From an uncultured bacterium (GTDB taxonomy: Bacteria; Krumholzibacteriota; Krumholzibacteriia; JACNKJ01): 64,000 bases of DNA. Of this stretch, positions 1,183 to 30,573 are shown piece by piece. Position numbers and translations under genes: made by a program. The first letter of the stretch is position 1, and the number at the start of each line of letters is the position of its first letter. A model generated the notes under the pieces. That model made no database searches and was not told the origin of the DNA. It was given only the letters and a program-made list of their open reading frames with translations. Where the stretch lies: positions 6,038-70,037 of the forward strand of contig CAYPGS010000009.1 in NCBI GenBank assembly GCA_964410395.1, written 5' to 3'.

Positions 1183-1305
1183 GCGGTCCTCATAATTTCG
1201 TCTTTGTGAATTTTTTTCGGTCAGACGCGGTAACAAACTAGGTCGCCGAAGCTGATTGTCAACTCTGGACCCGGAAATCCTGTTCTGTCCATCCCAAAAT
1301 GCCTC

Positions 1306-1334
1306 TTGACTTTGGGCTTCTCCCCCATTATTAT
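1306..1334 (+). promoter_or_regulatory. putative sigma70-type promoter TTGACT-17nt-TATTAT in divergent cytochrome/TetR intergenic region, followed by TTAATTAA palindrome (candidate operator)
   Basis: TTGACT at 1306-1311, 17-nt spacer, TATTAT at 1329-1334; AT-rich ctagTTAATTAAaac at 1340-1355 just upstream of TetR start. Confidence 0.4.
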
Positions 1335-1382
1335 CCATCTAGTTAATTAAAACATTTGTTTAAGAGCAGGAGCAGGCCCCAA

Positions 1383-6493: not shown

Positions 6494-9382
6494 TCAGTGG
6501 ATCACCACCACTTTCCGGGACAGGGATTCCCCGTTCACCTCGAGGCGCAGGAAATAGACGCCGTTGGCGAGCAGTTCCCCCTCGGAATTCCGACCGTTCC
6601 ACCGAAGCGTGTTGCCGCCCGGCAGCGCCCATTCATGATCCAAGGTGTTCAGGCGCCGCCCGCGGGCGTCGAAGATCTCCGCCTTGATCCGATGGGTATC
6701 CCGCAGTTCGAGTGAGAACTCGATCAGTCCTTCGCCGGCGTGGAAGGGATTCGGAAATCCCTGGCTCAGTTCGACGAAGTTCGCGTCGATGGCGCTGCTG
6801 CCGGCTCCATTGTCCAAGGCGAAACGCAGAACGGACAGTCCGCTCGACCGACAGATCAGCTTTTGGCGCTCCTCATCGTAGAAGCTGAGCAGCTGCACCC
6901 GGGAGTCGCTGAAGACCTGAAGGTTTTCCGGACCCATGCCGTCGGGAAAGACGAGGTCGCCATAGTCCCACTCGATGATCGCATCCTGGGTCATCTCGAT
7001 GGCGGGCATGATCTGGTAGACGGCGAGGTCGGGTTCCGCGTCGAGTTGCACGAGCCCCAGCAAGGGGTATTCGTCCAGGCTCCCCGCCTCGAAGTCCAAT
7101 CCCAGAAGCCCGTCGACGCTGATCAGATAGGGGCTTTCCCCGATCCCGATGGGATGCAGGCCGATGTTGTCGAAGATGCAGGTCTGGTTCCCGGCGAGAT
7201 CGCTTCCGCAGGCCTGCACGGAGAAGTCCGCGGCCCCGTGCTCGTAGAGGTACTCCGACTCCCACTGCAGTCCGTCGCTCCCCGCGACTTCGTTCACTTC
7301 GAGAATGATTCCCCAGGCGTCGGCAAAGAGATTCATGTCGACCATTTCCGGATCGAGGATTTCGGAAGCTTCGAGAAGCAGGTGGACGCTCCTCTCCTCC
7401 ACACTCATGTCCAGGCTCAGTTCGGGCGGAATCACATCGGACTCGGTGAGCTGCCCGCTCACGATGAAGGCGAAGCCCTGGGGTCCCATGGGCACGTTCT
7501 CGCCAATGACGCGGAGGGTCCAGACGCCGGTATCGGGATCGGTCACCACCACGCGTTCCACCGAGTTGAGGGGATCGCGCTCGCCGCCGGGCACGCTATA
7601 GCCGTCCGAAAACCAATTGCCCCAGTACTCCTGCCCCGAGGGCGAGGTGAGATGCAGGTCGAGATCGTTGACCACCGCCGGGTTCGCGCTGACCTCGGCC
7701 GGATAGTCCGAGAAGGCCATGGTGACCTTCAGGTCCAGGGAATCGTCGCCCACGGCGAAGGTGTAGATGCGCTCCTGGCCCGTGTTCAGACCCTCGGTGT
7801 GGCGGAAGTCCTGCAGATACTGATCGATGGGCGAATCCTCGCCGAGCTTCATGCCGAGGTTCATCTGGATGCGTCCCCAGCCTTCGCGGTCGCTGGGATA
7901 ACCGCTTACGCCCAGGAGGTCGTGGGTGGAGTTGATCAGGGTGGCCCGCATGAGGGCACCGCTGGGCGTGAAGGCATCTTCTGCCATCGGCGCGCCGCTC
8001 GGATACCAACCCTCCATGAAGTACTCGCGCATGAGCGAGGCCACGCTCACGATGGACGGGCAGGCCATGCTCGTGCCGCCCGCGCCCCGTCCGCGACAGA
8101 AGTTGGGCCAGTCCTCGGGATTGCTCGTGTAGGACTGGGCCGCGGCCCAGACCGTGCGCCCGGGGGCGTAGATCTCGGGCTTGCGCCGCCCGTCGATGGT
8201 AGGTCCCGTACCGCCGTAGCCGTGTTCCTCGAAGAAATCGAGGTCCTCCTCGGTGGCGTTCATGGTGGCGCCCACGGCCAGCACGTTCTTCGCGTTCTCC
8301 GGGGAACGCAGGGTGCTGGTGTTGGTCACGGCGAAGGCGACCATGTCCTCTTCGTTCTCGTGGCTGAACTTGTCGATGTCGTGGCAGTGCTGCGTGTAGT
8401 GGGTGTACTGGTCCTGCCCCCAGGAGTTCGTGTGCAGCCGCGATCCGTGGGAATGATGGATGCCGAGCGTCTCGTAGAGGCTGAAGCCCGTCACGTTGTA
8501 GCGCGAGGTGGCGAAACGCGAACGGAAGGCCTGGCCGCGATTGGTGGTCCAGCCGTAGAGGGGCTCGATGTCCCCGGCCAGGATGCTGGCCGTGTGAAGA
8601 CCGTGGGAGCTGAAGACATTCTGTGGGTCGATGTAGACCACCTTGCGGTGATCGGGCCCCACGGGATAGGCGTCGGGATCGTGGAAGTGGCAGGTCTCCA
8701 GCTGGAACCCTGAATCGATGTGCCCGAGGATCTGCCCCTCGCCGTCAAGGCCCAGATCCCAAACGGGCGTCAGGTCGACTTCCGCCGACTGCACGATCCA
8801 GCGCACGAAATCCAGGCGATCCTGGGCCTCGCCCACCTCGCTCAGCCATCGCAGGCCGGGCAGGGTGGTCAGGTCGGCCACGCGGCTGGCCCCGGCGCGC
8901 AGGAAAACCCGCGGGCTTTCGGCCATTTCGACTACGCGCAGGATCTGCGCTCCCCGGGCCGTGGCCCGGTCGGCGAATCGCGACGCGCTCTCGCCGGGCA
9001 GAAGCATGGCGCTCATCTCCAGTACCCGTCCGCCGCGGCCATCCAGAGCCGGATCCCGGCGCCACTCGGGCCGATAGGGATGTGCGAACTCCACCCCGGG
9101 AAGGCCGCCCTCGCGGGCTCCTACATCGCCCCGAACCAGCAGGTTGTTCACGGGCAGGTAGCCCAGGATCGTGAGGCCCGCCGATTCGAGCATCCCGCGC
9201 TCGCTCTCGCCGATGCGCCCCTCGAAGTGCATCACCCAGAGCCCGTCGTCGACCTCAGGCGGCGCCAGGCGGTCCAGATCGGCCTCGGTGAAACTGCCCG
9301 TGACCAGGTGCAGGGCACCGGGATCCAGGGCCAGGGCCGGCAGGGCCAGGATGAGCAGGGCTAGGGTGAGAACAGCGCGCAT
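6494..9382 (-). CDS. secreted subtilisin-like serine protease (peptidase S8) with T9SS-type C-terminal sorting domain
   Basis: 962 aa; signal peptide MRAVLTLALLILALPALA; catalytic triad contexts GHIDSG (Asp), HGLHTASILAG (His), GGTSMACPSIVSVASL (Ser); C-terminus ...FPNPF...IFD..GRR...W.G....GE.L.NGVYFLRLEVNGESLSRKVVVIH matches Por-secretion-tail pattern. Confidence 0.85.
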   Translation of the reverse strand: MRAVLTLALLILALPALALDPGALHLVTGSFTEADLDRLAPPEVDDGLWVMHFEGRIGESERGMLESAGLTILGYLPVNNLLVRGDVGAREGGLPGVEFAHPYRPEWRRDPALDGRGGRVLEMSAMLLPGESASRFADRATARGAQILRVVEMAESPRVFLRAGASRVADLTTLPGLRWLSEVGEAQDRLDFVRWIVQSAEVDLTPVWDLGLDGEGQILGHIDSGFQLETCHFHDPDAYPVGPDHRKVVYIDPQNVFSSHGLHTASILAGDIEPLYGWTTNRGQAFRSRFATSRYNVTGFSLYETLGIHHSHGSRLHTNSWGQDQYTHYTQHCHDIDKFSHENEEDMVAFAVTNTSTLRSPENAKNVLAVGATMNATEEDLDFFEEHGYGGTGPTIDGRRKPEIYAPGRTVWAAAQSYTSNPEDWPNFCRGRGAGGTSMACPSIVSVASLMREYFMEGWYPSGAPMAEDAFTPSGALMRATLINSTHDLLGVSGYPSDREGWGRIQMNLGMKLGEDSPIDQYLQDFRHTEGLNTGQERIYTFAVGDDSLDLKVTMAFSDYPAEVSANPAVVNDLDLHLTSPSGQEYWGNWFSDGYSVPGGERDPLNSVERVVVTDPDTGVWTLRVIGENVPMGPQGFAFIVSGQLTESDVIPPELSLDMSVEERSVHLLLEASEILDPEMVDMNLFADAWGIILEVNEVAGSDGLQWESEYLYEHGAADFSVQACGSDLAGNQTCIFDNIGLHPIGIGESPYLISVDGLLGLDFEAGSLDEYPLLGLVQLDAEPDLAVYQIMPAIEMTQDAIIEWDYGDLVFPDGMGPENLQVFSDSRVQLLSFYDEERQKLICRSSGLSVLRFALDNGAGSSAIDANFVELSQGFPNPFHAGEGLIEFSLELRDTHRIKAEIFDARGRRLNTLDHEWALPGGNTLRWNGRNSEGELLANGVYFLRLEVNGESLSRKVVVIH

Positions 9383-13647: not shown

Positions 13648-15756
13648 ATGTACGAGTCACTGCTTTCTCCCGGCTCCATCTGCGTCATCGGCGCTTCCCA
13701 GACGCCCGGCAAGGTGGGCTACGAGATCTTCGCCAATCTGGTCGACGGCGGCTTTCAGGGAAAACTATTCCCCGTGAATCCGAAAGCCGACTCCATCCTC
13801 GGCCATGCCTGTTTTCCCGACATCTCCTTCCTTCCAGAAAGCCCCGACCTCGCGGTGATCGCGGTGCCTACGCCCGCGGTGAAGCCCGCCGTGGAGGCCA
13901 GCCACCAGAAGGGCGCCGGCGCGATCATCGTGATCACCGCGGGATTCAAGGAGACCGGTCCCGAAGGCGCGAAGCTCGAAGAGGAGATATCTCGTCTCTG
14001 TCGCGGGAAGGACGTGCCCCTCATGGGGCCCAACTGCCTCGGACTCGTGAACACGCAGCACGCCATGAACGCGTCCTTCGCCAGCCACATGCCCGAGGAA
14101 GGCGAGATCTCCGTGCTCTCGCAATCGGGCGCGTTGTGCACGGCCATCCTGGACTGGGCCGCCGGACGTCACCTGGGCCTGGCCAAGCTGGTGAGCATGG
14201 GCAACAAGGCGGGTCTGGACGAGCGCCACTTCCTTTCCGCCTTCGCCGAGGACGATGACACCAAGGTCATCGTGGGCTACCTGGAAAGCATCAGCGAGGG
14301 CGATGAGTTCATCCGCCGGGCCGAGGCCGTGGCGACGAAGAAGCCCGTGGTACTGCTCAAGGTGGGCAGCACCGAGGCCGGCGGAAAGGCGGCGAGTTCA
14401 CACACGGGTTCGCTGGCCGGAGCCGATGTGGCCTACGGCGCGGCCTTCAAGCGGGCGGGCGTGATCCGGGCGGAGAACTTCGAGCATCTCTTCGACGTGG
14501 CCACCGCCCTGGCCATGCAGCCCCTGCCCCAGGGCGACCGCGTGGCCATCATCACCAACGCGGGCGGACCCGGCATCATGGCGGCCGACGCCGTGGAGAA
14601 CGCCGGCATGACCGTGTCGAAGCTCTCCGGCGAAAGCGCCGAGGCCCTGGCCGACAAGCTTCCCGCGGCCGCCAGCGTCGCCAATCCCATCGACGTGCTG
14701 GGCGACGCCGATCCCGAGCGCTACGCCATGGCCCTGGACGTGGCCCAGGACGACGACACGGTGGACGCCATCGTCGTCATCCTCACGCCCCAGGCGATGA
14801 CCCGCCCCGCGGAGACGGCCCGGGCCATCGCCGCGCGGGTGAGGAACGAGAAGCCGGTTCTGGCGGTCTTCATGGGTGGGCGGGACGTCATGCCCGGCCG
14901 CGAGGAGCTGGTGGAGGCCAAGCTGCCCGACTACACGTCCCCCGAGCGCGCGGTGGCCGCGTTGAAGGCCATGCGCAGCTACGCCGAGTGGAGGAAGCGT
15001 CCGCCGCGCATCGTGTCGCGATTCCCCGTGAACCGGCGCCGGGTGGAGCGCATCCTCTCTCGGCAGGTTCGATCGGGACGCGTACAGGTCGGCGAAGTTC
15101 AGGCCAAGGAAATTCTGCGCGCCTACGATTTCAACGTGCCCGCCGGACAGCTCGCGACCAACGGCGATGAGGCCGTGGACATAGCCGAGCGCCTTGGGTA
15201 TCCCCTGGCCATGAAAATCGTTTCGGCGGAAATCGTGCACAAGTCGGACTTCGGCGGCGTGAAGATCGGCCTGGGTTCGGCCGATGAAGTGCGCGACGCC
15301 TTCGACCTCATGACCCTTCGCATCGGGCGGCGCATGCCCGAGGCGAAGATCGACGGGATCTACATCGAACAGATGGCGGGGCGCGGCCGCGAGGTCATCC
15401 TGGGAATGACCAGGGATCCGCAGTTCGGCCCCATGCTCATGTTCGGACTCGGCGGCATCTTCGTAGAGGTCATGAAGGACGTCACCTTCCACCTGGCCCC
15501 CATCACTCGCGATGAGGCTCTGCAGATGCTCATGGGCACGCGCTCCTACGCGCTCCTCGAGGGCGCCCGCGGACAGGGCCGCGTGGATATCGGCGCCATC
15601 GCCAAGGGCATCCAGCGCATCAGTCAGCTGGTGACCGACTTCCCGCAGATCGCCGAACTGGACATCAATCCGCTCATCGTCGGACCCGTGGGCACCGAAC
15701 CCGCCGTGGCCGACGCGAGGATCACCCTTTCCAAGGAGGGGGATGGCGATGATTGA
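13648..15756 (+). CDS. acd: acetyl-CoA synthetase (ADP-forming), fused alpha/beta subunits (acetate--CoA ligase [ADP-forming])
   Basis: ATG 13648 (MYESLLSPGSICVIGASQTPGKVGYEIF..., CoA-binding) with AAAGGAG SD; succinyl-CoA-synthetase-like and ATP-grasp regions; ORF-track start 13582 reads through the repeat element and is rejected. Confidence 0.85.
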   Translation: MYESLLSPGSICVIGASQTPGKVGYEIFANLVDGGFQGKLFPVNPKADSILGHACFPDISFLPESPDLAVIAVPTPAVKPAVEASHQKGAGAIIVITAGFKETGPEGAKLEEEISRLCRGKDVPLMGPNCLGLVNTQHAMNASFASHMPEEGEISVLSQSGALCTAILDWAAGRHLGLAKLVSMGNKAGLDERHFLSAFAEDDDTKVIVGYLESISEGDEFIRRAEAVATKKPVVLLKVGSTEAGGKAASSHTGSLAGADVAYGAAFKRAGVIRAENFEHLFDVATALAMQPLPQGDRVAIITNAGGPGIMAADAVENAGMTVSKLSGESAEALADKLPAAASVANPIDVLGDADPERYAMALDVAQDDDTVDAIVVILTPQAMTRPAETARAIAARVRNEKPVLAVFMGGRDVMPGREELVEAKLPDYTSPERAVAALKAMRSYAEWRKRPPRIVSRFPVNRRRVERILSRQVRSGRVQVGEVQAKEILRAYDFNVPAGQLATNGDEAVDIAERLGYPLAMKIVSAEIVHKSDFGGVKIGLGSADEVRDAFDLMTLRIGRRMPEAKIDGIYIEQMAGRGREVILGMTRDPQFGPMLMFGLGGIFVEVMKDVTFHLAPITRDEALQMLMGTRSYALLEGARGQGRVDIGAIAKGIQRISQLVTDFPQIAELDINPLIVGPVGTEPAVADARITLSKEGDGDD

Positions 15757-17626
15757 GGAGAAGAGCAGCATCGATCCCGCCTGGCAGGAGAAGTACGCCG
15801 ACCTGATCCTGAGCCCGAAGGAGGCGCTGGAGGGCATTCGTCCCGGACAGCGCGTCTTCGTCGGCACGGGATGCGCCCAGCCGCAGACCCTGGTCCAGGC
15901 CCTCGCGGACCGGGCCGGCGAACTGGCCGATACCGAGATCGTGCATCTGCTGACCTTCGGCGACGCGCCCTACGCGAAGAAGGAACTGGCATCGCAGTTC
16001 CGCGTGAACAGCTTCTTCATCGCCGACAACGTGCGCAGCATCATCCAGGAAGGCATGGGCGACTACACGCCCATCTTCCTGTCCGACATCCCCCGCCTCT
16101 TCAGCTCGGGACAGCTCCCTCTCGACGTGGCTCTCGTGCAGGTGACGCCGCCTGACGATCGCGGGCGCTGCAGCCTGGGCGTATCGGTGGACATCGTGAA
16201 AAGCGCCATGGCCAACGCCTCGCTGGTCATTGCCGAGGTGAATCCGCAGATGCCCCGCGTCCTGGGCAACAGCTTCGTGGACGTCTGGGATCTCGACGTC
16301 CTGGTTCCGATGGACGAGCCCGTTCTCGAACGACCTCCACGGGAGCCTGACGACCTCACCCGCAAGATCGGCGAGTACGTGGCCTCGCTGGTGGACGACG
16401 GCAGCACCCTGGAGCTCGGCATCGGGCGAATTCCCCACGCGGTGCTGGAGTTTCTCGGCGAGAAGAAGGACCTGGGCATCCACACCGAGATGCTCACCGA
16501 TGGGATCATCCCGATGATCGAATCAGGGGTGATCAATGGCAGCCGGAAGAGCCTGGACCGCGGGAAGATCGTGGCCAGCTTCTGCCTGGGCACGAAGAAG
16601 CTCTACGACTACATCGACGAGAATCCGAACATCGCCTTCCACCCCACCGAATACGTGAACGACCCCTTCGTGATCAGCCAGCAGAACAGGATGGTGGCCA
16701 TCAACGTGGCCCTCGAGGTGGATCTCACCGGACAGGTCTGCGCCGACTCCATCGGCTCGAAATTCTTCTCGGGCATCGGCGGGCAGGTCGACTTCAACCG
16801 CGGCGCCGCGCGCTCGGAGGGCGGCAAGGCCATCATCGCCATGCCCGCCACGGCACTGGCCGGCAAGAAGAGCCGCATCGTCTCGCAGCTCGCGCCGGGC
16901 GCCGGCGTGGTGACCACCCGTGGCGACGTGCACTACGTGGTAACCGAGTACGGTGTGGCCTACCTGCACGGAAAGAGCGTGCAGGACCGCGCACTGGCGC
17001 TGATCAGCATCGCCCATCCGGAGTTCCGGGCCGAGCTGCTGCGCGAGGCCATCGAGGCCAAGTACGTGAGCCCCGACAAGACGGGCGTGGAGGGACGTCT
17101 GGTGGTGGGGCCCCAGGAGCTTCGCAGCACCTACATCCTGGACGACGGAACGCCCATCGCCTTCCGGCCCATCCACCCCACCGACGAGCACAATCTGAAG
17201 GATCTCTACTACGCGCTGAGCCAGGAGACGATCTACTACCGCTTCATGCAAAATCTGAAACGGATTCCCCAGAAGCAGGTGCAGGACTTCGTCTTCATCG
17301 ACCACCGCAGCGACGTGGCCATCGTGGGCACACTGCCCGAGGCCCATGGCGAGCAGTTCGTGGCCATCGGCCGCTACTTCCTCGATCCGACTTCGAACCG
17401 GGCGGAGGTGGCCTTCGTGGTGAGGGACGAGTGGCAGAACCGGGGCATCGGCTCCTACCTGCTCAAGTCGCTCACGACCATCGCGCGGCGAAACGGTATC
17501 GGTGGTTTCACTGCGGAAGTGCTCAAGCAGAATCGCGCCATGCAGTCGGTCTTCAACAACAGCGGACTCAAGGTGAAGAGCCACCTCAAGGGCGAGGTCT
17601 GGCACTTCGATCTGGAGTTCAATTAA
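15743..17626 (+). CDS. acetyl-CoA hydrolase/transferase-family (4-hydroxybutyrate CoA-transferase-like) domain fused to C-terminal GNAT acetyltransferase domain
   Basis: 627 aa; overlaps acd stop by 14 nt; CoA-transferase signatures ...LELGIGRIPHAVL..., ...FFSGIGGQVDFNRGAARSEGGKAIIAMPAT...; C-terminal ~180 aa has GNAT motif A (WQNRGIGSYLLKSL). Confidence 0.7.
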   Translation: MAMIEEKSSIDPAWQEKYADLILSPKEALEGIRPGQRVFVGTGCAQPQTLVQALADRAGELADTEIVHLLTFGDAPYAKKELASQFRVNSFFIADNVRSIIQEGMGDYTPIFLSDIPRLFSSGQLPLDVALVQVTPPDDRGRCSLGVSVDIVKSAMANASLVIAEVNPQMPRVLGNSFVDVWDLDVLVPMDEPVLERPPREPDDLTRKIGEYVASLVDDGSTLELGIGRIPHAVLEFLGEKKDLGIHTEMLTDGIIPMIESGVINGSRKSLDRGKIVASFCLGTKKLYDYIDENPNIAFHPTEYVNDPFVISQQNRMVAINVALEVDLTGQVCADSIGSKFFSGIGGQVDFNRGAARSEGGKAIIAMPATALAGKKSRIVSQLAPGAGVVTTRGDVHYVVTEYGVAYLHGKSVQDRALALISIAHPEFRAELLREAIEAKYVSPDKTGVEGRLVVGPQELRSTYILDDGTPIAFRPIHPTDEHNLKDLYYALSQETIYYRFMQNLKRIPQKQVQDFVFIDHRSDVAIVGTLPEAHGEQFVAIGRYFLDPTSNRAEVAFVVRDEWQNRGIGSYLLKSLTTIARRNGIGGFTAEVLKQNRAMQSVFNNSGLKVKSHLKGEVWHFDLEFN

Positions 17627-17710
17627 CTTCAACTTGAACTCGAAATGAACTCCCCACCCCCATCCAACCGGTGGGGGTTCCTTCTTGTTCAAGTTCACGT
17701 TCAAGTTCAC
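17627..17710. promoter_or_regulatory. repeat-rich intergenic region: inverted GTTCAAGTT copy (17627-17639), hairpin CCCCCA-9nt-TGGGGG + T-rich tail (17657-17690, possible terminator of upstream operon), tandem GTTCAAGTTCAC x2 (17687-17710)
   Basis: All repeats read directly; lies upstream of first Cys-rich paralogue. Confidence 0.45.
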
Positions 17711-17777
17711 GTTTCTCATGATTCCGGTTCGCTTCTTGCAATTCCTCCAGCGGCACGCAATCACTGGAGGAGAATCA

Positions 17778-18356
17778 ATGCGCAAAGTACTGCTAACACT
17801 GGCACTTATGAGTATCGCCACCGTCGGCCTGGCCGATCCGGTGATCGGAATCTTTGCAGACGAGAACATGGTTTCTTGCGATACTGCCCTGATTCCTTAC
17901 GCCCCCACCATGCTCTACGTGATCGCCTACTGGACCACCGGTCCTCTGGATGACGGCATCACCGCCGCCGAGTTCAGGCTCGACGGGTTGCCCCAGAACG
18001 ACGGGTATCCCCTGGGTCAGGTCACGGTCAACCATACGACGGATCTGGTCATCGGTAACATCTGGCATGACTACTCCGCCGCCTGGTCGAATCCTCAGGG
18101 CGCGGGCGTGAGTCAGTTCACCATCTGCAGCATCGAGATTCTCATGTTCGACGCCGGCTGGGTCGGCCCGGACACCGAAGTCACCGTCTCCGCAGGATTT
18201 GACTGTGACTGCCTGGTTCTCGTGGACTCCTTCTTCGACGTGCACACCGCCGCCGGAGGGCTGTTCACCCTGAACTGTTCCGAGCCTCCCTGCGATTGCT
18301 TCCCGCCGGTCGCTACCGAGAGCACCAGCTGGAGCAATGTGAAGTCGCTTTTCTAG
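17778..18356 (+). CDS. secreted Cys-rich hypothetical protein, paralogue 1 (unknown family)
   Basis: ATG 17778 with GGAGG SD 7 nt upstream; signal peptide MRKVLLTLALMSIATVGLA; conserved blocks shared with paralogue 2: DGYPxGxVTVNHTTDLVIGxIWxDYSAAW, FTICSIE, CxCLxLVD, NCSxPPCDCFPP, TSWSxVKxLF. Confidence 0.6.
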   Translation: MRKVLLTLALMSIATVGLADPVIGIFADENMVSCDTALIPYAPTMLYVIAYWTTGPLDDGITAAEFRLDGLPQNDGYPLGQVTVNHTTDLVIGNIWHDYSAAWSNPQGAGVSQFTICSIEILMFDAGWVGPDTEVTVSAGFDCDCLVLVDSFFDVHTAAGGLFTLNCSEPPCDCFPPVATESTSWSNVKSLF

Positions 18357-18501
18357 AACGTTGCGTTTTCATTGGTTGTTTGAGGCCCCCGGCTCTTCGC
18401 CGGGGGTTTTCTAGTAATAATACTTGTCGCATTTCGTCGGCAACACTAGCCTGACACCAAACCCCTCACTGCCGCCCGGAAACTCAAACGGGAGGCAAGT
18501 G

Positions 18502-19077
18502 ATGCAAAAGACCAGTGCGATCATTGCGATTCTGTTGTTTGCGGTAAGCGCTCATGCAATGCCTGTCATCGGAGTCTTCGCCGATGAGGTGCCTTACATT
18601 TGCTACGCGGATGTGACTCCCTACGTACCTCTTACGCTCTACGTCGTCTCCTATTGGGAACCCGGAGAAATGGGCGCCGGAGTGACGGCCGCGGAGTTCA
18701 AAATCGCGAATTTCCCGACGAATGACGGCTACCCAAGCGGAACAGTGACCGTGAATCACACGACCGACTTGGTCATAGGCGATATCTGGACTGACTACTC
18801 AGCAGCATGGAACATCCCGCAAGATGAGGGAAACAAGTTCACGATCTGCAGTATCGAAGTTCTCCCATTCGATGCAGCCTGGATTCCAGGACAGCTGACC
18901 GTACTCGTCACCGAAGGTGACGATTGCTCGTGCCTGCTTTTGGTGGATGACATCTTCGAAATCGTCCCCGCTCGCGGAGGGCAGTTCACTTTCAACTGCT
19001 CGAATCCGCCCTGTGATTGTTTCCCGCCCACATCCACTCGCGATACCAGCTGGAGCAGCGTGAAGGCGCTGTTCTAG
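18502..19077 (+). CDS. secreted Cys-rich hypothetical protein, paralogue 2 (about 60% identical to paralogue 1 by eye), lower G+C
   Basis: ATG 18502 with GGGAGG SD; signal peptide MQKTSAIIAILLFAVSAHA; same six conserved Cys; ORF-track starts 17685/18424 are upstream extensions. Confidence 0.6.
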   Translation: MQKTSAIIAILLFAVSAHAMPVIGVFADEVPYICYADVTPYVPLTLYVVSYWEPGEMGAGVTAAEFKIANFPTNDGYPSGTVTVNHTTDLVIGDIWTDYSAAWNIPQDEGNKFTICSIEVLPFDAAWIPGQLTVLVTEGDDCSCLLLVDDIFEIVPARGGQFTFNCSNPPCDCFPPTSTRDTSWSSVKALF

Positions 19078-19089
19078 GGGCAGAATGAA

Positions 19090-19131
19090 CCCGTCTGGAC
19101 ATCAAGCATATCGACTTGATTTCCAGACGGG
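19090..19131. terminator. bidirectional terminator hairpin between convergent genes (10-bp stem CCCGTCTGGA / TCCAGACGGG with inner ATCAAG/CTTGAT stem)
   Basis: Inverted repeats read in sequence; T-rich tail on minus-strand side (ttcattctg). Confidence 0.55.
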
Positions 19132-19147
19132 TTCCAATAGTGGATCC

Positions 19148-21328
19148 CTACTTCAGAAGTAGCAGCTTCCGCTGCTGGCTCATTTCACCCGCAGCCAAGC
19201 GCGCGAAGTACAGCCCCGAGGGCAACTCGCGCCCGGTCGCGTCGCGACCGTCCCATGTATACACGTGTACACCCGCCTCGAGGTCTGTACCCGGGTGCAG
19301 TTCCCGCACCTGGCGTCCCATCGAATCGAAGATCGCGAGCCGGACCGGCCCGCGCTCAGGCAGCGCGAAACGAATCTGCGTGCTCGGATTGAAGGGGTTC
19401 GGCCAGTTGCTCAGGCGAAGCGCTGTGGCGGCATCGGCCACATCCGAGGCCGGATCGAAGAAGACCCAGATGGGATTGGTATAGGCCCTATGCCCGGCAT
19501 GGCCGTCCTGGGTGAGCAGTTCGGCGCGGAGCATGCGCCAGCCGTCCAGGCCCAGGCCGCCCACATCGAACTCGGCCGTGCCCTCGTAGGGCTGGCCGCC
19601 TTGGGCGGGGTTGAAGCTGTGCAGCACGGCGGTCCCGTTCGCGTCGCCGATAATGAGCTTCACCGACACGGCGTGTCCGAACTCGGGCAGGGTCTTCCAG
19701 CGGAAACGAAGGGGGCGGTAGCCGCTGGCAGGCGCGGATCCGTCATCGCCGATGACGAGGTCGCCGGCACCGTACCAGGAGCCGTCGGCGTCCACATCGA
19801 GGCCGATCTCCAGGAAGGGACCATCAGTGATCACGCTGCGACCCGCGCGATAGGCTTCGAGCAGCAGCTCCATGGGCGGCAGATTTCCCGGCCCCCACTC
19901 GCCGGGCACGTGCACCACGGTCTGCACCTTCCCCATGGCGTTGTCGGTGGCGTAGTTGTCCAGGCTGATGTACGTGGCGAAGTTGAAGTCGCCGTGGGCA
20001 TCGCTGCCGCCGGCGAGGAAGCACTTCCTCTGAAATCCCGCGGCGAGGTCGGCGGCCAGCAGCTCGTCCCAGAGATCGATGCCCGCCAGCAGCTCGCTCG
20101 GATAGGGATCATCCGCCGGCACGCCCGCGTCGAAGTCGCTCCAGGGATCGTACTGGTCGGCGGAGTACAGGGTCTCGCGGGTGTTGAAGGCCTGCAGGCC
20201 ACGGAAGGCCGAGTAGCCCAGGGCGGCTGAAATGTCTGCATCGCCCCAGCGCGCGCCGTTCACGCCCCAGTCCAGCCCGCCCCACTCGGCCCCGAGATCG
20301 CTCAGGGGATGGGCCGCGTAGGCGAAACCTTCCGGCGACAGCGCCGCCAGGCCCTCGGTGACGCTCAGGTCCACCGGCCGTTCGCCGATGGCGCCGCTAT
20401 TGGGCGAGTGGATGTAGTCGTCATTGTAGAAAAGCCCGTGCAGGGTCTTCTGCCAGGAATCCGAATCCACGGAAGCCAGGTTGATCTCGACCCCGCGATA
20501 CAATCTGAAATCCGGCGAGTCCAGCTCGGCCACGTCGGCTCCGAGCCCGCCCCAGGATGAACCGTGGGCGAAGACGTCGCGATAGTGCGGCGTGATGCCC
20601 GAGGGCGTCTGCATGGTCCACTCCCACCAGTGGGTGGCGTAGCTGAAGGGGCCGTCGCCGGTCTCGTCCAGGTCGCAGCTGTGGTCGGTGGCGGTGAGCC
20701 AGTGCAGGCCCATGGCCTTGGCGGCCTCGGCCACGGCGGGAAGCGGCATGCCGAATTCGGCGATGTTGTTGGTGTACATGGTGTGATAGTGAACGTCGCC
20801 GCCGAACCAGTCCTCCGGCCAGGGAAAGGGTCCGCTGCCCACGTGGATGCGAAGCGCCCGCTCCTCGGTGTAGTTGAACCAGTCGTCCTTGTAGTAGATC
20901 TCCACGAACCAATTGATTTTGTCGCCCTCGCTGTAGCCAAGGTTCGCGGGCGTCAGCAGCGTGCCGTTCGGGAGCCAGCTGTGGTTCTCGGTGACGGTGG
21001 TGATCCAGGTCCAGTAGTTGTCCTCGCTGGCGTCGTCGCCGATCTCCTCGTCGCCGAAGTCGTGGCGCCAGACCTGGGCGCCGGTGTTCGTGTCGGTGCA
21101 GCGGATCCAGTGCAGCTCGCGGATGTCGTCCTCGTCGCAGTCCTTCAGCAGGATGGCGAGCGGGATGACCGTATTGGCGTCGATGACCCGCCAGGGCGCA
21201 TCCATGATGAAGTCCTTGGCCAGGGTGTTGTCGTAGCGGTCGGCGTTCTCCCAGGGCCAGGGGCTGGGTGGCTCAATGTGGGCGAAGGCCACGGAGGTAA
21301 AGAGAAGTAGAGCAAAGGCAAGGCGCAT
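19148..21328 (-). CDS. secreted protein with putative PHP-like metal-dependent phosphoesterase region and T9SS-type C-terminal sorting domain
   Basis: 726 aa; signal peptide MRLAFALLLFTSVAFA; GGDVHYHTMYTNN ... WLTATDHSCDLD resemble PHP-domain metal-binding motifs (tentative); C-terminus SNWPNPFNPSTQIRFALPERGPVRLAIFDSMGRQV...GVHVYTWDGRDATGRELPSGLYFARLAAGEMSQQRKLLLLK matches Por-secretion-tail pattern. Confidence 0.6.
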   Translation of the reverse strand: MRLAFALLLFTSVAFAHIEPPSPWPWENADRYDNTLAKDFIMDAPWRVIDANTVIPLAILLKDCDEDDIRELHWIRCTDTNTGAQVWRHDFGDEEIGDDASEDNYWTWITTVTENHSWLPNGTLLTPANLGYSEGDKINWFVEIYYKDDWFNYTEERALRIHVGSGPFPWPEDWFGGDVHYHTMYTNNIAEFGMPLPAVAEAAKAMGLHWLTATDHSCDLDETGDGPFSYATHWWEWTMQTPSGITPHYRDVFAHGSSWGGLGADVAELDSPDFRLYRGVEINLASVDSDSWQKTLHGLFYNDDYIHSPNSGAIGERPVDLSVTEGLAALSPEGFAYAAHPLSDLGAEWGGLDWGVNGARWGDADISAALGYSAFRGLQAFNTRETLYSADQYDPWSDFDAGVPADDPYPSELLAGIDLWDELLAADLAAGFQRKCFLAGGSDAHGDFNFATYISLDNYATDNAMGKVQTVVHVPGEWGPGNLPPMELLLEAYRAGRSVITDGPFLEIGLDVDADGSWYGAGDLVIGDDGSAPASGYRPLRFRWKTLPEFGHAVSVKLIIGDANGTAVLHSFNPAQGGQPYEGTAEFDVGGLGLDGWRMLRAELLTQDGHAGHRAYTNPIWVFFDPASDVADAATALRLSNWPNPFNPSTQIRFALPERGPVRLAIFDSMGRQVRELHPGTDLEAGVHVYTWDGRDATGRELPSGLYFARLAAGEMSQQRKLLLLK

Positions 21329-25663: not shown

Positions 25664-25758
25664 CAATCTTCTTACATGGATCTGACCATCATTTTCTTAG
25701 TAAGACGTAGACTCATGACGATGAATCCTGTGGATTTTCTAGAAGGAGGGCCAACGTC

Positions 25759-27084
25759 ATGAGTGGAAGAATCAAACGAATGAACCTATCCATCCTCGTT
25801 TTCGCATTACTGTTCTGGCAGAGTCCGGAAACGGCAAAGGCCAGGATGATCGACTTGAGTGTGGCGGTCGACAAGCCCATCGTTCTTCGGAATGAGAGTC
25901 AGGTCGCATACTTAAGGGTCGGGCTGACCGGATTCCCGATGCACGACCTACAGAATCGCAGCCCCTTGAATGTGGCAATCGTGCTCGACAAGTCGGGTTC
26001 GATGCAGGGAGAGAAGATCGAACGGGCAAAAGAAGCTGCGATCATGGCGATCCATCGTCTTGACTCAAGGGACATCGTGTCGATCATCGCCTACGACGAA
26101 ACCGTCGAAGTCGTTGTTCCGGCCACGAAAGCTTCAGACATCGAAGCCATCAGCGCTGCGATTCGCGCAATCCAGGCGCGCGGCAACACAGCCCTTTTTG
26201 CCGGAGTCAGTAAGGGCGCGGCTGAAGTGCGGAAGTTCCTCAGCAAGAATCATGTGAACCGTATTGTGCTCCTTTCAGATGGAGTAGCGAATGTGGGTTT
26301 GAGCTCGCCTTCTGACCTCGGCGCTCTGGGGTCAATTCTTGCGGACGAGGGCATGTCTGTTACGACCATCGGCCTCGGACTGGGATACAACGAAGACCTG
26401 CTAAGCGAACTCGCGACAAGAAGTGACGGGTATCACTATTTCGCTGAGGGATTGGAGGATCTCTCCCAGATGTTCGACCAGGAGTTCGGCAAGGCACTGT
26501 CCTTAGTCGCACAGGGAATTGAAATCCGCATTCGATGCGCCCCCGGTGTCATCCCGCGCCGCATCCTAGGCAAGTCAGCCACGATCGATGGCTCTGATGT
26601 GAGGATTTCCCTCAACAACCTATTCAGCGAGAGCGAGCGGCGGATCGTTTTGGAGGTAGAGTTGTCTCCCGAAATGCTTCGGGATCCGGATGTCGAGATT
26701 GCCGCCATTGACGTAGACTATGACAACCTTCTTACTCGCTCGCGAGATCATCTAGATCGTAAGCTGAGCATCGAAACAACTCTATCGAGAGCTGATGTCG
26801 ATGCGAACATCAATTCGCGTGTAATGGTCGACGTAGTCAAGATCCTTGCGGTGGAGCAGAACATGCAGGCTTCGCTACTTAGAGACCAGGGACGCATTGC
26901 CGAAGCGCTTGAGCTTCTTCTTAGGAACGCAGACTTCCTCGCCGAGAACGCCCTTCGTTTCAATTCCCAGGATCTCCAGGCATACTCACTGCAGCAGGAG
27001 ATCGACGCCCAGAACTTGGACGACACAAACTGGGATCGCCAACGCAAGGAAATGGAGTTCAACGCTGTGAAAGCCCTTTACTAG
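25759..27084 (+). CDS. secreted von Willebrand factor type A (VWA) domain protein
   Basis: 441 aa; SD AGGAGGG; signal peptide ...LVFALLFWQSPETAKA; MIDAS DxSxS in VAIVLDKSGSM; lower G+C than flanks. Confidence 0.75.
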   Translation: MSGRIKRMNLSILVFALLFWQSPETAKARMIDLSVAVDKPIVLRNESQVAYLRVGLTGFPMHDLQNRSPLNVAIVLDKSGSMQGEKIERAKEAAIMAIHRLDSRDIVSIIAYDETVEVVVPATKASDIEAISAAIRAIQARGNTALFAGVSKGAAEVRKFLSKNHVNRIVLLSDGVANVGLSSPSDLGALGSILADEGMSVTTIGLGLGYNEDLLSELATRSDGYHYFAEGLEDLSQMFDQEFGKALSLVAQGIEIRIRCAPGVIPRRILGKSATIDGSDVRISLNNLFSESERRIVLEVELSPEMLRDPDVEIAAIDVDYDNLLTRSRDHLDRKLSIETTLSRADVDANINSRVMVDVVKILAVEQNMQASLLRDQGRIAEALELLLRNADFLAENALRFNSQDLQAYSLQQEIDAQNLDDTNWDRQRKEMEFNAVKALY

Positions 27085-27116
27085 GCTGAACGACACGATT
27101 CTCGATCGGAATCTGA

Positions 27117-28685
27117 ATGAAACCGAAGCTCTCTATTCTGCTTGCTCTACTGATTCTCCTTCCCGCGATTCTCGTCACGATCCTGGGAATCAGGCTCGCC
27201 TATCATGAGCAAGAGCAGACGAGGTTGCGATTCGAGCATCTACACCTCGAACACCTGGGCGATGTTGACAATGGCATCGTCCAGGTTACTTCTCGATGGG
27301 AAACTGAGCTTCTCCAGGCATTATCTGTTTCCGATGTCAACGCTATGACCCTGAAGAACCTGTCCCGCAATCATGCTCGTATCAGACAGGCATTTCTGCT
27401 TGATCCTCAGGGCAAGCTCATCTACCCCCTTCCCAGCGAACATGCAAGTTCCTCGGAGCTGGACTTTCTAGATGGGGCAAGCGAACTGATCCTTAGGAAA
27501 GAGTTGGTTGCCCTTCCTGGAACAGAAGCATCCGCCGTCCCTCAGGGGTGGTACTCCTGGTATTGGGGCAGGGATATCCGGACACTTTTTTGGCTACATA
27601 CAAGTGAAGGACAAATCCTCGGAGCCGAGATCGAGACTGTATTGCTTGTCTCTGACATCATCAATGCATTGCCCGTCACGCAAACAAGTTCGGAGTCAGA
27701 TTTATCGACCGGGCTCTTAGATCGTACCCGCCTGCTGAACTCTAGAGGTGAGATCATTTATCAATGGGGGCGACTGGAGGTACCCGAGGATACTTCGCCG
27801 GCCTCACGAATCCAGCTCTCCCGACCACTTTCGGCTTGGAGCCTGGAGCTCTATCGTAGCGACGGTGCCGGATCGATCGCTGGCCGAGGCGTCCTGATGA
27901 CCATCATTGCGAGTTCCTTGGCCCTTGCGCTGGTCTTTGTCGGCTTCGGCATCTTCCTTTACCGGGAAAACTCCCGCGAGCTACGTGAGTCCGCCCGGCG
28001 AGTCAGCTTCGTCAATCAGGTCTCCCATGAGCTGAAGACCCCACTCACGAATATCCGCCTCTACGCCGAACTCCTAGACCGCCGGATCGACGAGGACGAT
28101 TCCCAGGCCCGTGGATATGCTGGTATTATCGTTTCGGAAAGTCGCAGGCTTAGCCGACTCATTGGCAATGTCCTCAGTCTTGGCCGACAGCGGGAAAAGA
28201 GGCTTACTCTCCATCGAAGGGCGGGGTGCATTGACAGTGTGATCGAAGGGGTACTCGAACAATTCCGACCTGCCCTGAGGACCTCAGGAATCGCGGTTCT
28301 TACTGATCTTCAGGCTATCGGAAATGTCTCCCTGGATGCCGATTTACTCGAGCAGGTCCTGGGAAATCTGATCAGCAATGTAGAAAAGTACGCCGCTTCA
28401 GGTGAGCAGCTGGCGATTGCAAGTCGTCAGCGTGATGGAGTCACGACCCTTACGGTTGAGGATCGCGGCCCAGGCATTCCAGACAGTGAGAAAGCTCGAG
28501 TGTTCGAGCCCTTCTACCGAATCAACACGAGCCTTGTCGAGGGAGTGTCCGGGACTGGTATCGGACTTTCCATCGCTCGTGATTTGGCCCGTCTGCACGG
28601 AGGAGATCTGAAGCTGATGCCAAGCGAGATGGGGGCGAAGTTCGAGCTGACTCTGTTCACTCCTGATATGAATCTGGGAGAATGA
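27117..28685 (+). CDS. sensor histidine kinase (two TM segments flanking a periplasmic domain; HisKA + HATPase_c)
   Basis: 522 aa; H-box SHELKTPLTNIRLYAELL; G-boxes GTGIGLSIARDLARLHGGDL. Confidence 0.85.
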   Translation: MKPKLSILLALLILLPAILVTILGIRLAYHEQEQTRLRFEHLHLEHLGDVDNGIVQVTSRWETELLQALSVSDVNAMTLKNLSRNHARIRQAFLLDPQGKLIYPLPSEHASSSELDFLDGASELILRKELVALPGTEASAVPQGWYSWYWGRDIRTLFWLHTSEGQILGAEIETVLLVSDIINALPVTQTSSESDLSTGLLDRTRLLNSRGEIIYQWGRLEVPEDTSPASRIQLSRPLSAWSLELYRSDGAGSIAGRGVLMTIIASSLALALVFVGFGIFLYRENSRELRESARRVSFVNQVSHELKTPLTNIRLYAELLDRRIDEDDSQARGYAGIIVSESRRLSRLIGNVLSLGRQREKRLTLHRRAGCIDSVIEGVLEQFRPALRTSGIAVLTDLQAIGNVSLDADLLEQVLGNLISNVEKYAASGEQLAIASRQRDGVTTLTVEDRGPGIPDSEKARVFEPFYRINTSLVEGVSGTGIGLSIARDLARLHGGDLKLMPSEMGAKFELTLFTPDMNLGE

Positions 28686-29374
28686 CCATGAGAATACTCA
28701 TCGCCGAGGACGACATGAACATCCGCAACGCCCTGGCGAAAATCTTTCGGGAGGAAGGCTACGAAACTCTGCTCGCGTCAACCGGGTCTGAAGCATTGCT
28801 GCTTTTCGAGACGGAAAAGCCGGATCTGGTCTGCCTGGACATCATGATGCCGAGTGTGAATGGCTATGATGTTTGCCGCGAAATTCGAAGGAAGGGTTCA
28901 AATGTTCCGGTCATCTTCATCAGCGCAAAGTCCGAGGAAATCGACAAGGTGCTTGGCCTGGAGTTGGGTGCCGATGATTTCATCGTGAAGCCATTCGGAC
29001 TTCGGGAAGTGATCGCCCGCGTTCGGGCCGTAAGTCGACGCTATCGCCTGGGCCCCTCTCTCGGCAAGGACCCTGCGCCTTTCCACATGGGCTCCCTTGA
29101 GGTCGCTCCCGCCGAGCTGAGAGCCTACCGAGATGGCCAGAGTATCGAACTCAGCCAGCGTGACATGGATATCCTCAAGATCCTTCATGATCAGCAAGGA
29201 CGGGTCGTCGATCGAGTAACATTGTTCCGGATAGCCTGGGGCCTGGACCACATTCCCACTAGCCGTACTTTGGACCAGCACATTTCCCAGTTAAGGAAGC
29301 GAATCGAGTTGGATCCGAAGAACCCGACTCTAATCAAGACGGTGCATGGAGTAGGCTATCGCTTTGAAGGCTGA
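28682..29374 (+). CDS. OmpR/PhoB-family response regulator (receiver + winged-helix)
   Basis: 230 aa; overlaps HK stop by 4 nt; receiver ILIAEDD...LDIMMP...; C-terminal ...TVHGVGYRFEG. Confidence 0.85.
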   Translation: MTMRILIAEDDMNIRNALAKIFREEGYETLLASTGSEALLLFETEKPDLVCLDIMMPSVNGYDVCREIRRKGSNVPVIFISAKSEEIDKVLGLELGADDFIVKPFGLREVIARVRAVSRRYRLGPSLGKDPAPFHMGSLEVAPAELRAYRDGQSIELSQRDMDILKILHDQQGRVVDRVTLFRIAWGLDHIPTSRTLDQHISQLRKRIELDPKNPTLIKTVHGVGYRFEG

Positions 29375-29381
29375 GAGCAGT

Positions 29382-30509
29382 TCAAAGGTGCTGGCTGCTC
29401 ATGACGCGAATCGTCATACCTGATTTGCGCAAGTCGTAGGGTTTCCTCACGTTGGGGCAGACTAGCAGGTTCTCACCCTCGGGATATGCCTCCCGGAAAA
29501 CGGAGAGCGCTCTCGCATCGAATGCATCGGGATTGACCTTCACCTCAATCGCGTCGACGGCCTTTCCCTTGGCCTTGACCACGAAGTCGATCTCTCGCTG
29601 ACTCTTGTCCCTCCAATAGTGGATGGCTTGACCAGGACGCGATACGCGCAGCTCGTCCAGCACCAGATGCTCCCAGAGCTGCCCCCTGTCCCCATCCCGC
29701 AGAGACTCCCATCCCCGGACATGAGCGACCAAACCCGTATCGAAGGCATAGACCTTGGGTTGACGGATTATCTCGCGATGCCCGCCGCCATGGAATGGCG
29801 GCACGCGGGTCAGCGCGTGCGCGATTTCCATCGCCTCCAGATGAGCCATCACAGTTTGACGACTCAAGCCGCTTTCCTTGGCGAGATCGCTGATCTCGAG
29901 CTGCCCCCCACTGCGGTGACAGACCAGGCGCAGGAGCTTTAGAAAACCACTTCGGTTACGCACACTGAACAGCTCCTGGATGTCTCTCGCAAAGAAACTG
30001 TCCATCCATTCTTCGAAGAAGCTTGGGTCGGGAGCGTCCGCGAGCAGCAATTCAGGAAAACCGCCGTGGAGGAGCCGCTTGTCGAAATCAGGCGGTCCGA
30101 ACTCGCCCTGGCACTCTCTCCAAAGCACCGGGGTCAACTGAACCGTATGCTTGCGGCCGCTGAGGCTGTCGCGGAATTTACTCGTCGCCTGCAAGGTCGA
30201 CGAGCCCGTGGCCAGTACCTTCAAGTGCGGGAACTCATCGGCAGCGATTTTCAGAACCGAGCTCGGATCCGCGATCCGATGAACCTCATCGAGGATCACG
30301 GGCCTGCCACCCGGCTGGCTCGAGAGGAAGAACTCGGGATCCTCCAATCGCCTCTGAGTTGAGGGGAGATCGCAGTTGAAGTAGATCGCCTCGGAAATCT
30401 GCTTGCACAGTGTGGTCTTTCCCACCCGGCGAGCGCCGGAGAGCCAGACGATGCTTCGCTTCTCCCAAAGGGCGTGGATTCGTTCGACCCATTGACTGCG
30501 TCTTTTCAT
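29382..30509 (-). CDS. AAA+ superfamily ATPase (COG1373-like, DUF4143-type)
   Basis: 375 aa; Walker A GARRVGKTT; Walker B VILDEVH; convergent with RR gene (7-bp gap). Confidence 0.65.
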   Translation of the reverse strand: MKRRSQWVERIHALWEKRSIVWLSGARRVGKTTLCKQISEAIYFNCDLPSTQRRLEDPEFFLSSQPGGRPVILDEVHRIADPSSVLKIAADEFPHLKVLATGSSTLQATSKFRDSLSGRKHTVQLTPVLWRECQGEFGPPDFDKRLLHGGFPELLLADAPDPSFFEEWMDSFFARDIQELFSVRNRSGFLKLLRLVCHRSGGQLEISDLAKESGLSRQTVMAHLEAMEIAHALTRVPPFHGGGHREIIRQPKVYAFDTGLVAHVRGWESLRDGDRGQLWEHLVLDELRVSRPGQAIHYWRDKSQREIDFVVKAKGKAVDAIEVKVNPDAFDARALSVFREAYPEGENLLVCPNVRKPYDLRKSGMTIRVMSSQHL

Positions 30510-30573
30510 ACACTGTACTTAGCAATGAGCCGGCCAAATGTAAAGTAGAAATGCATTTGGCGGCAAAGCAAAA

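Follow-up and report, generated by a model that had tools for sequence, protein, structure and literature searches.

Two adjacent genes, here called A and B, on contig CAYPGS010000009.1 of an uncultured bacterium of the Krumholzibacteriota specify small exported proteins that may be understood as docking modules of the cell envelope. They lie within a stretch of 64,000 nucleotides (nt), referred to below as the window, and both proteins combine a signal peptide, a β-sandwich with the predicted fold of a cohesin, a Cys-rich segment and a short, strongly conserved C-terminal tail. The reading favored here, at a probability of roughly 0.5, is that A and B are envelope or surface docking/adaptor modules sorted by that tail. 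It starts from the export signal, the fold, the extent of the family, the modularity and lineage specificity of the tail, the conservation of a gene cluster in relatives and the purifying selection acting on the genes; from these we infer a docking function, a ligand, a final location and a machine that reads the tail.

Gene A occupies positions 17778..18356 of the forward strand, from its ATG to the end of its stop codon, and codes for a precursor of 192 amino acids (aa); gene B (18502..19077, same strand) codes for a 191 aa paralogue of the same architecture. A GGAGG-type ribosome-binding site stands 6-7 nt 5' of each start. The proteins align by BLASTP over their full length with one gap and 107/192 identities (56%, E 5e-78). 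An original prediction, made by eye from the sequence, had described a tandem pair of ~190-codon genes for signal-peptide proteins about 60% identical to one another; the open reading frames (ORFs) and the alignment bear this out, and the shared sequence blocks that it quoted are all present in the alignment. The signal peptide of A, read from the sequence (residues 1-19, 17778..17834, forward strand), is of type I; with the cleavage point marked, the N-termini are MRKVLLTLALMSIATVGLA|D for A and MQKTSAIIAILLFAVSAHA|M for B. Each has a basic n-region, a hydrophobic core and small residues at positions -1 and -3; neither has a lipobox. Such an N-terminus is found, by a simple heuristic, in 95/98 members of the family, and a lipobox-like string in only 2/98. 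AlphaFold places a helix at residues 2-12 of the signal peptide of A, with low confidence.

The remainder of mature A up to the tail is the sandwich together with an N-C-x4-C-x-C segment (residues 20-176, 17835..18305, forward strand). Six conserved Cys had been predicted; A and B have seven in common (residues 34, 117, 143, 145, 167, 172 and 174 of A), and only four of these (34, 167, 172 and 174) are conserved family-wide. The additional CxC pair at 143/145 is confined to a subfamily. The way in which Cys residues appear and disappear together across the family suggests the disulfide pairs C34-C174 and C167-C172, the first of which would tie the C-terminal N-C-x4-C-x-C segment back onto the sandwich. 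A and B would then be Sec-exported, disulfide-stabilized proteins of about 18.6 kDa, probably with two disulfides each. Asn166, next to the first Cys of that segment in the string F-N-C-[ST], is kept almost throughout the family (≥90%) and is part of an N-x-S/T sequon (residues 166-168 of A; 18273-18281 in the window). In mature A, K189 of the tail is the sole Lys and R67 the sole Arg. Medians for the family domain are 0.6% Lys and 1.2% Arg, compared with 2-6% and 5-9% in other window proteins; so extreme a shortage of basic residues might have to do with protecting the proteins from a C25-type protease, or with specificity for such a protease.

The fold assignment comes from structure prediction. 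AlphaFold2 gave a model of A with a predicted local distance difference test score (pLDDT) of 83 and a predicted template modeling score (pTM) of 0.79 from a 13-sequence alignment; with 98 sequences these rose to 90.8 and 0.84, with residues 21-170 at 94-98. The model is a nine-stranded flattened β-sandwich (jelly-roll), as in cohesins, and cohesins make up 14 of the top 15 Foldseek matches. Sequence identity to cohesins in structural alignments is 7-14%. On these grounds the domain is predicted to be a cohesin-fold β-sandwich of ~150 residues, one that has no detectable sequence relationship to catalogued cohesins. The original prediction had spoken of an adhesin-like module, with which a cohesin-type fold is compatible.

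One may ask instead whether the sandwich is a carbohydrate-binding or lectin-like module, which would bind polysaccharide or the cell's own glycans. The β-jelly-roll is common among carbohydrate-binding modules, and one relative (P0089) fuses a C-type lectin domain to the module; however, cohesins outrank every carbohydrate-binding match by 3-4 Z units, and no glycoside hydrolase was found in the conserved gene clusters described below. This explanation is considered unlikely.

The family that carries the domain is uncatalogued but not small. Neither A nor B matches any Pfam or NCBIfam model (for Pfam, at E≤1); 98 members compared with Pfam gave no consistent match and none to Cohesin, only scattered single chance hits; and the family profile found nothing significant among PDB sequences, with no cohesin and only laccase matches at E 0.06 and above. 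The statement, made at the outset, that the pair could be assigned to no known family thus still holds. A literature search returned nothing relevant on the family or its tail. A word-indexed homologue search found only 12 proteins and would have suggested a tiny family; that idea is discarded, as an exhaustive profile search of 1.84 billion cluster representatives recovered 648 at E≤1e-3, of which 197 were at ≤1e-10. Most of the matches are proteins of ~190 aa that align over their whole length. Of the best 150 representatives, about 20 are larger, multi-domain proteins (737-4,491 aa) in which the domain is present in one to four copies; these also carry HYDIN/ASH-type Ig-like repeats and a C-terminal FlgD_ig / Por_Secre_tail domain of the kind used by the type IX secretion machinery (T9SS). 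Counted over the family, multi-domain proteins of this build range from about 330 to 4,500 aa. The members come from uncultured bacteria, and the only labeled one belongs to a Candidatus Krumholzibacteriota genome. No third paralogue was found in the window by tblastn. Among relatives, proteins of 1,000-1,470 aa, often in adjacent tandem pairs, have three or four cohesin-fold domains and T9SS-type ends (KLVLLR); they are encoded at L021 2-8130, L038 1-7144 and L045 7039-14913.

The likeness to cohesins (PF00963; for example PDB 2vo8, 1ohz and 2xdh) extends from the fold to the way in which the domain is used. As with cohesins, the domain may make up a small protein by itself or be repeated three or four times within a large surface protein, and in relatives the family genes adjoin a gene for a protein with a dockerin-like calcium loop. 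Repetition of the module within one scaffold, another cohesin feature, is seen in family proteins of 737-1,749 aa with two to four copies; A and B are single-module proteins. The differences are equally plain: the family has no sequence-profile match to cohesins in Pfam or PDB; it has an extra Cys-rich segment, in which two disulfides are inferred, and a conserved C-terminal tail; its hosts are uncultured, with what appears to be T9SS-type anchoring instead of the SLH or sortase anchoring of cohesin systems; and its dockerin partner is only a candidate, proposed from gene context. Cohesin-dockerin systems are known mainly from Gram-positive cellulosome producers. The hosts here appear to be diderm, to judge from type IX-type cargo and Omp85 genes on the same contigs.

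The second element of the favored reading is the tail, which is separated from the Cys-rich segment by an acidic, Thr/Ser-rich linker (typically A-T-E-[DE]-[ST]-S). In A it comprises residues 181-192 (ESTSWSNVKSLF, 18318..18353) and in B residues 180-191 (RDTSWSSVKALF, 19039..19074), both on the forward strand. The consensus on the standalone ~190 aa proteins is [ST]W[SG]x[VI]K[AS]L[YF]-COOH: among 98 members the Trp at -8 is present in 86, the Lys at -4 in 96 and the Leu at -2 in 89, and the last residue is Tyr or Phe in all 98. A two-turn helix is predicted at residues 185-191, and confidence is low in the tail region of both models (pLDDT 52-68; in the 98-sequence model 59-68, as against 94-98 for the domain), which fits a flexible appendage better than part of the fold.

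The tail behaves as a module. Among the best 150 representatives, 118 have it as the C-terminus of the protein, with at most one or two residues beyond; 18 have a KLVLLR-type T9SS end; none has both. Those KLVLLR-ended representatives that were scanned against Pfam carry a FlgD_ig / Por_Secre_tail domain. The tail also follows longer architectures: a C-type lectin domain plus the family domain in P0089, and, in P0129 and P0141, the family domain with ~120 further residues. A T9SS C-terminal domain takes the place of the tail in P0119 and in all of the large proteins. The tail and the T9SS C-terminal domain are mutually exclusive endings of the family domain.

The tail is not confined to cohesin-fold proteins. 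An exported 441 aa protein encoded elsewhere in the window (25759..27084, forward strand) has a Pfam VWA domain, ends in EFNAVKALY and does not match the hidden Markov model (HMM) of the family domain. All six of its other homologues at ≥54% identity end in [VI]K[AS]L[YF]; no such end was seen in ~38 more distant VWA homologues inspected, and a tally of all 120 gave no further motif-like ending. The named distant homologues, from Planctomycetota, Sumerlaeota and Verrucomicrobia, have basic, Gln-rich tails. A third tailed family consists of exported proteins of 226 aa (P0293-P0297; one gene lies at L032 17905-18612, reverse strand) with no match to Pfam or to the cohesin-fold HMM; all five known members have the same linker and tail, ATE[ED]x[ST][FM][SG]x[VI]K[ST]LY (ATEEATFSSVKALY). 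In mature form, members of this third family contain just two to four Lys along with two Arg. The tail is thus shared by at least three unrelated exported families, and within ~0.5 Mb of sequence from this lineage no ORF beyond these three families ends in the strict motif. The tail is lineage-specific and modular, and its presence on at least three unrelated families has the look of a signature of a sorting or recognition signal.

A different account of the tail makes it the ligand of a periplasmic PDZ protein (HtrA, a Prc or Ctp-type protease, or the PDZ domain of a secretion system), or else a mimic of the C-terminal aromatic signal of outer-membrane proteins; A and B would then be confined to the periplasm or to the outer membrane's inner face. 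The ending [AS]-L-[YF]-COOH does resemble both class I PDZ ligands and the outer-membrane-protein signal, the terminal residue is always Tyr or Phe, and the tailed proteins have no type IX C-terminal domain. Against this, the prediction is for a soluble sandwich and not for a barrel; the W-x-x-V-x-x-L-[YF] spacing suits a two-turn amphipathic helix (AlphaFold predicts a helix there) better than it does a membrane strand with alternating residues; and T9SS-sorted surface proteins display the same domain. Retention in the periplasm by such a route seems improbable.

The third element is a gene cluster found in relatives. Its order is a gene for an exported protein of 208-216 aa (p216), then three or four tandem family paralogues, then a gene for a C25 peptidase. 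The full order is present in L005, L008, L015, L016, L019 and L044, down to 40% peptidase identity; the hosts are five related assemblies, a Candidatus Krumholzibacteriota metagenome-assembled genome (MAG) and further metagenome contigs, and p216 followed by the array occurs on five further short contigs. The peptidase, of ~1,330 aa (1,334 aa), has a Peptidase_C25 domain and a FlgD_ig C-terminal domain; its best NCBIfam match is the PorU T9SS sortase (E 1e-33), at 116 bits against a curated cut-off of 420. It is therefore called PorU-like here. An EF-hand-like loop in this peptidase (DxxxDGxLDAxD) is single and only partly conserved, and was not counted as a dockerin. The protein p216, which matches no Pfam family, has a dockerin-like calcium loop, DLNGDGTVNTQD, with a degenerate second repeat, and is a candidate partner of the cohesin-fold proteins. 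Its loci include L005 5694-6344 and L019 4440-5066, with others in L008, L015, L016, L031, L042, L043 and L046; it ends in NLSDCP, and its gene is always directly 5' of the paralogue arrays. Just 5' of the cluster in two assemblies (L005 5126-5326, L008 4208-5325) are genes for a membrane protein of 66 aa with two helices and for a LarE-like sulfur transferase; the 66 aa protein is 98% identical between L005 and L008, whose PorU-like proteins are 66% identical.

The peptidase suggests another way to join these parts: A, B and their relatives might be fiber or surface-layer subunits, in which the PorU-like C25 peptidase would cleave at the invariant Lys of the tail in a sortase-type reaction that uses the tail as a mini-signal; the new C-terminus would be linked to a further subunit, or else to an anchor of lipid or glycan. 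In favor of this, three or four paralogues are arrayed directly 5' of the peptidase in distant genomes. The Lys at -4 is nearly invariant, 35/98 members have no other Lys in the mature domain, and the single Lys and single Arg of mature A fit as well; the tail is also borne by a VWA protein, and VWA proteins are the tip adhesins of sortase-assembled pili. However, PorU is not known to be Lys-specific. Other exported window proteins are also Lys-poor (0.9-1.7% Lys), so that the scarcity of Lys belongs in part to exported proteins here in general; the VWA protein has no such shortage of Lys or Arg; and A and B do not adjoin a peptidase gene. Polymerization into a fiber or layer is judged a minor prospect.

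Comparison with described export, sorting and pilin systems gives partial likenesses throughout. T9SS type A cargo is the nearest: A and B have an N-terminal Sec signal (by the heuristic), proteins with FlgD_ig / Por_Secre_tail ends carry the same domain, the family arrays adjoin a gene for a PorU-like C25 peptidase, and a C-terminal element would decide the fate of the protein. Unlike such cargo, A and B have only an 8-14-residue peptide where a 70-100-residue C-terminal domain would be; no T9SS C-terminal domain of Pfam or NCBIfam is found in them, and only 16 residues follow the Cys-rich segment. The PorU-like protein, for its part, falls far below the cut-off for PorU. Systems such as LPXTG/sortase, PEP-CTERM/exosortase and GlyGly-CTERM/rhombosortase likewise have a lineage-restricted motif at the extreme C-terminus of unrelated exported proteins, and tandem arrays of carriers that adjoin a candidate processing protease. 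They differ in that here no transmembrane helix or basic stop-transfer segment follows the motif, as the motif itself ends the protein; the candidate protease here is of the C25 type. Type V pilins of the Bacteroidota (FimA/Mfa1) resemble the family in their clusters of small paralogous β-sandwich proteins, a C25-family protease and an important C-terminal segment, but the family has no lipoprotein signal (Cys at +1), the model of A has one sandwich domain instead of two transthyretin-like domains, and the first 47 mature residues of A contain no Arg/Lys processing site. Outer-membrane β-barrels with a C-terminal signal share only the terminal aromatic residue; the model of A is a confident soluble sandwich. 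Identity as T9SS type A cargo, type V pilin, outer-membrane barrel or bearer of a sortase-type signal was rejected in each case on a defining feature that was looked for and is lacking.

The docking/adaptor reading joins the three elements as follows. The sandwich would act as a protein-docking module, in the manner of a cohesin. The tail would be a modular sorting, anchoring or partner-recognition signal that replaces the T9SS C-terminal domain of the multi-domain relatives. As small adaptor or scaffold subunits, A and B would be brought to, or retained at, the cell envelope or surface, and would serve the same surface system as the giant multi-cohesin T9SS proteins. The core family copies would work with the PorU-like C25 peptidase and p216; A and B would be dispersed copies, each transcribed alone. 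A narrower version holds that the tail may be an undescribed, lineage-specific sorting signal on unrelated exported proteins, read by the PorU-like C25 peptidase/sortase whose gene adjoins the arrays; this version is tentative, and on present evidence doubtful.

Several points weigh against the docking/adaptor reading. No member of the family matches the Pfam Cohesin model or any PDB sequence, and any homology to cohesins is putative; the jelly-roll sandwich is also the fold of carbohydrate-binding modules. The candidate partner p216 has no Pfam Dockerin match even at E≤1, and only one of its calcium loops is clear. This window contains no p216 or PorU-like gene, and A, B and several other members (L024, L025) sit singly among housekeeping genes. 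As to the tail, it is far shorter than any known domain for secretion or sorting, and the census of tail-bearing proteins covers only the ~0.5 Mb of this lineage mentioned above.

The setting of the pair bears on yet another explanation, that of the original prediction, in which A and B form a recently acquired low-G+C islet with a pair of secreted effectors. It was right that the genes, B especially, are lower in G+C than their flanks: the computed values are 0.598 for A and 0.545 for B, with G+C at third codon positions (GC3) of 0.78 and 0.66, against G+C of 0.64-0.71 and GC3 of 0.86-0.94 for four flanking genes and a G+C of 0.629 for the whole window. It was right also that the genes evolve fast: identity to the counterparts in the closest relative, L013, is 82% for A and B and 92-99% for five flanking genes, which makes the pair the fastest-evolving proteins of the neighborhood. 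Recent acquisition does not follow. The window is core chromosome, with genes for PFOR, ADP-forming acetyl-CoA synthetase, EF-G, EF-Tu and rpoBC and with ribosomal-protein operons, and no mobility genes adjoin A and B. The slot of A, between a gene for acetyl-CoA hydrolase/GNAT and a convergent gene for a 726 aa PHP-type hydrolase, is the same in L001, L012, L013 and L028; A is single-copy at this locus in L001, L012 and L028, and L013 has both A and B. Family GC3 is below that of neighboring genes in most genomes examined, clearly in L005, L001 and L019 and marginally in L008, and the B-like copy of L013 has a GC3 of 0.62. The codon bias of high expression was considered as a cause of low GC3 and set aside, as the ribosomal-protein genes of the window have a GC3 of 0.82-0.94; low GC3 is thus a trait of the family, and reflects neither recent transfer nor an expression-linked bias. 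The dN/dS ratio of 0.15-0.23 indicates purifying selection. The islet, then, is largely excluded by synteny and has very little probability left to it.

Nor did B arise as a local tandem duplicate of A, a possibility that the tree and the identities rule out. In a neighbor-joining tree A groups with its syntenic orthologues, and B groups with the third member of the PorU-linked array of relatives, to which it is 65% identical; B is therefore not a local duplicate of A. The B copy of L013 adjoins the A orthologue and is 82-85% identical to B, and it is frameshifted in that assembly: at L013 6725-7299 the orthologue is split over two frames near codon 60-70, which may mark a pseudogene or an error of MAG assembly.

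The boundaries of the pair also differ in part from what had been described. To the left, a repeat-rich region had been noted, and direct and inverted hexamer repeats are indeed found in the upstream region of A (17625..17777, forward strand): direct repeats GTTCAAGTTCACG at 17680-17711, with inverted copies at 17625-17644 (GTTCAA/GTTCAC hexamers). Between these, a hairpin with a T-rich tract at 17656-17678 ends the gene upstream of A. An alignment of four orthologous upstream regions shows strong conservation of a leader made up of the last ~70 nt before the ATG of A. A regulatory role for this region is putative. A sigma-70 promoter scan of 17400-19400 returned no sites, and a sigma-54 promoter in the conserved leader, looked for by eye, was rejected because the TTGC and GGCAC elements stand in the wrong order.

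To the right, what had been called a bidirectional terminator, between the convergent genes for B and the 726 aa protein, is a very stable hairpin with a 20-bp stem (19087..19134, assigned to no strand; ΔG -32.1 and -34.2 kcal/mol, z -5.4 and -6.7), but neither strand of it has a U-tract, it was not called by the terminator scan, and it is thus not a canonical intrinsic terminator. The original prediction overlooked a hairpin of canonical terminator-like form between A and B (18382..18416, forward strand), with a 12-bp G+C-rich stem, a 5-nt loop and the sequence UUUUCU; its centroid energy is -22.9 kcal/mol with z -2.7, and a terminator-consensus scan did not list it. Given this hairpin, A and B are probably separate transcription units.

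Among the neighbors, the convergent gene (19148..21328, reverse strand; syntenic in relatives) encodes an exported CehA/McbA-type (PHP) metallohydrolase of 726 aa with a FlgD_ig / type IX secretion C-terminal domain, and a gene at 6494-9382 (reverse strand) encodes a 962 aa exported subtilase with a FlgD_ig-type C-terminal domain. As both carry such domains, the organism appears to use a type IX-like secretion route. The gene to the left of A (15743-17626, forward strand) encodes an acetyl-CoA hydrolase/transferase fused at its C-terminus with a GNAT acetyltransferase domain; there is a 14-nt overlap between its start and the stop of the gene for ADP-forming acetyl-CoA synthetase, an arrangement kept in relatives. 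At the left end of the window (1-1338, reverse strand) a gene for a multihaem cytochrome c (cytochrome c7/c3, with paired CXXCH motifs) runs off the edge. The tailed VWA protein is encoded in a further stretch of low G+C (25700-30550; G+C 0.54-0.58, GC3 0.58-0.72) that lies between a 236 aa gene and a ferritin gene and consists of four genes, for the VWA protein, a histidine kinase, an OmpR-type response regulator and an AAA_14/DUF4143 ATPase. L001 has the 236 aa gene followed directly by ferritin, and L028 has the VWA gene at that place; the stretch looks like a variable insertion. An Rfam search of the whole window yielded only tRNA-Trp, so that the low-G+C stretch at 25-31 kb is not an rRNA operon.

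What these findings describe is a module, predicted to have the cohesin fold, whose sequence family and cellular setting are both new. A domain of this fold in hundreds of protein clusters from apparently diderm, uncultured hosts points to a scaffold-type surface architecture in a lineage that has no cultured model organism; it is found there in two settings, in small proteins that bear the tail and, repeated, in very large surface proteins sorted by the T9SS. Patterns of this sort, in which unrelated proteins share a tail and the carriers are encoded beside a peptidase, have led to the recognition of new protein-sorting systems before. If the tail is indeed read by the PorU-like peptidase, it would define a 'mini-signal' branch of type IX-style surface attachment; alternatively, the family would show diderm bacteria building a cohesin-based surface scaffold by a new route. 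The tail, if confirmed, would supply a simple sequence rule that predicts one class of envelope or surface proteins in these lineages, and would give a handle on the diversification of type IX-like machinery outside the Bacteroidota.

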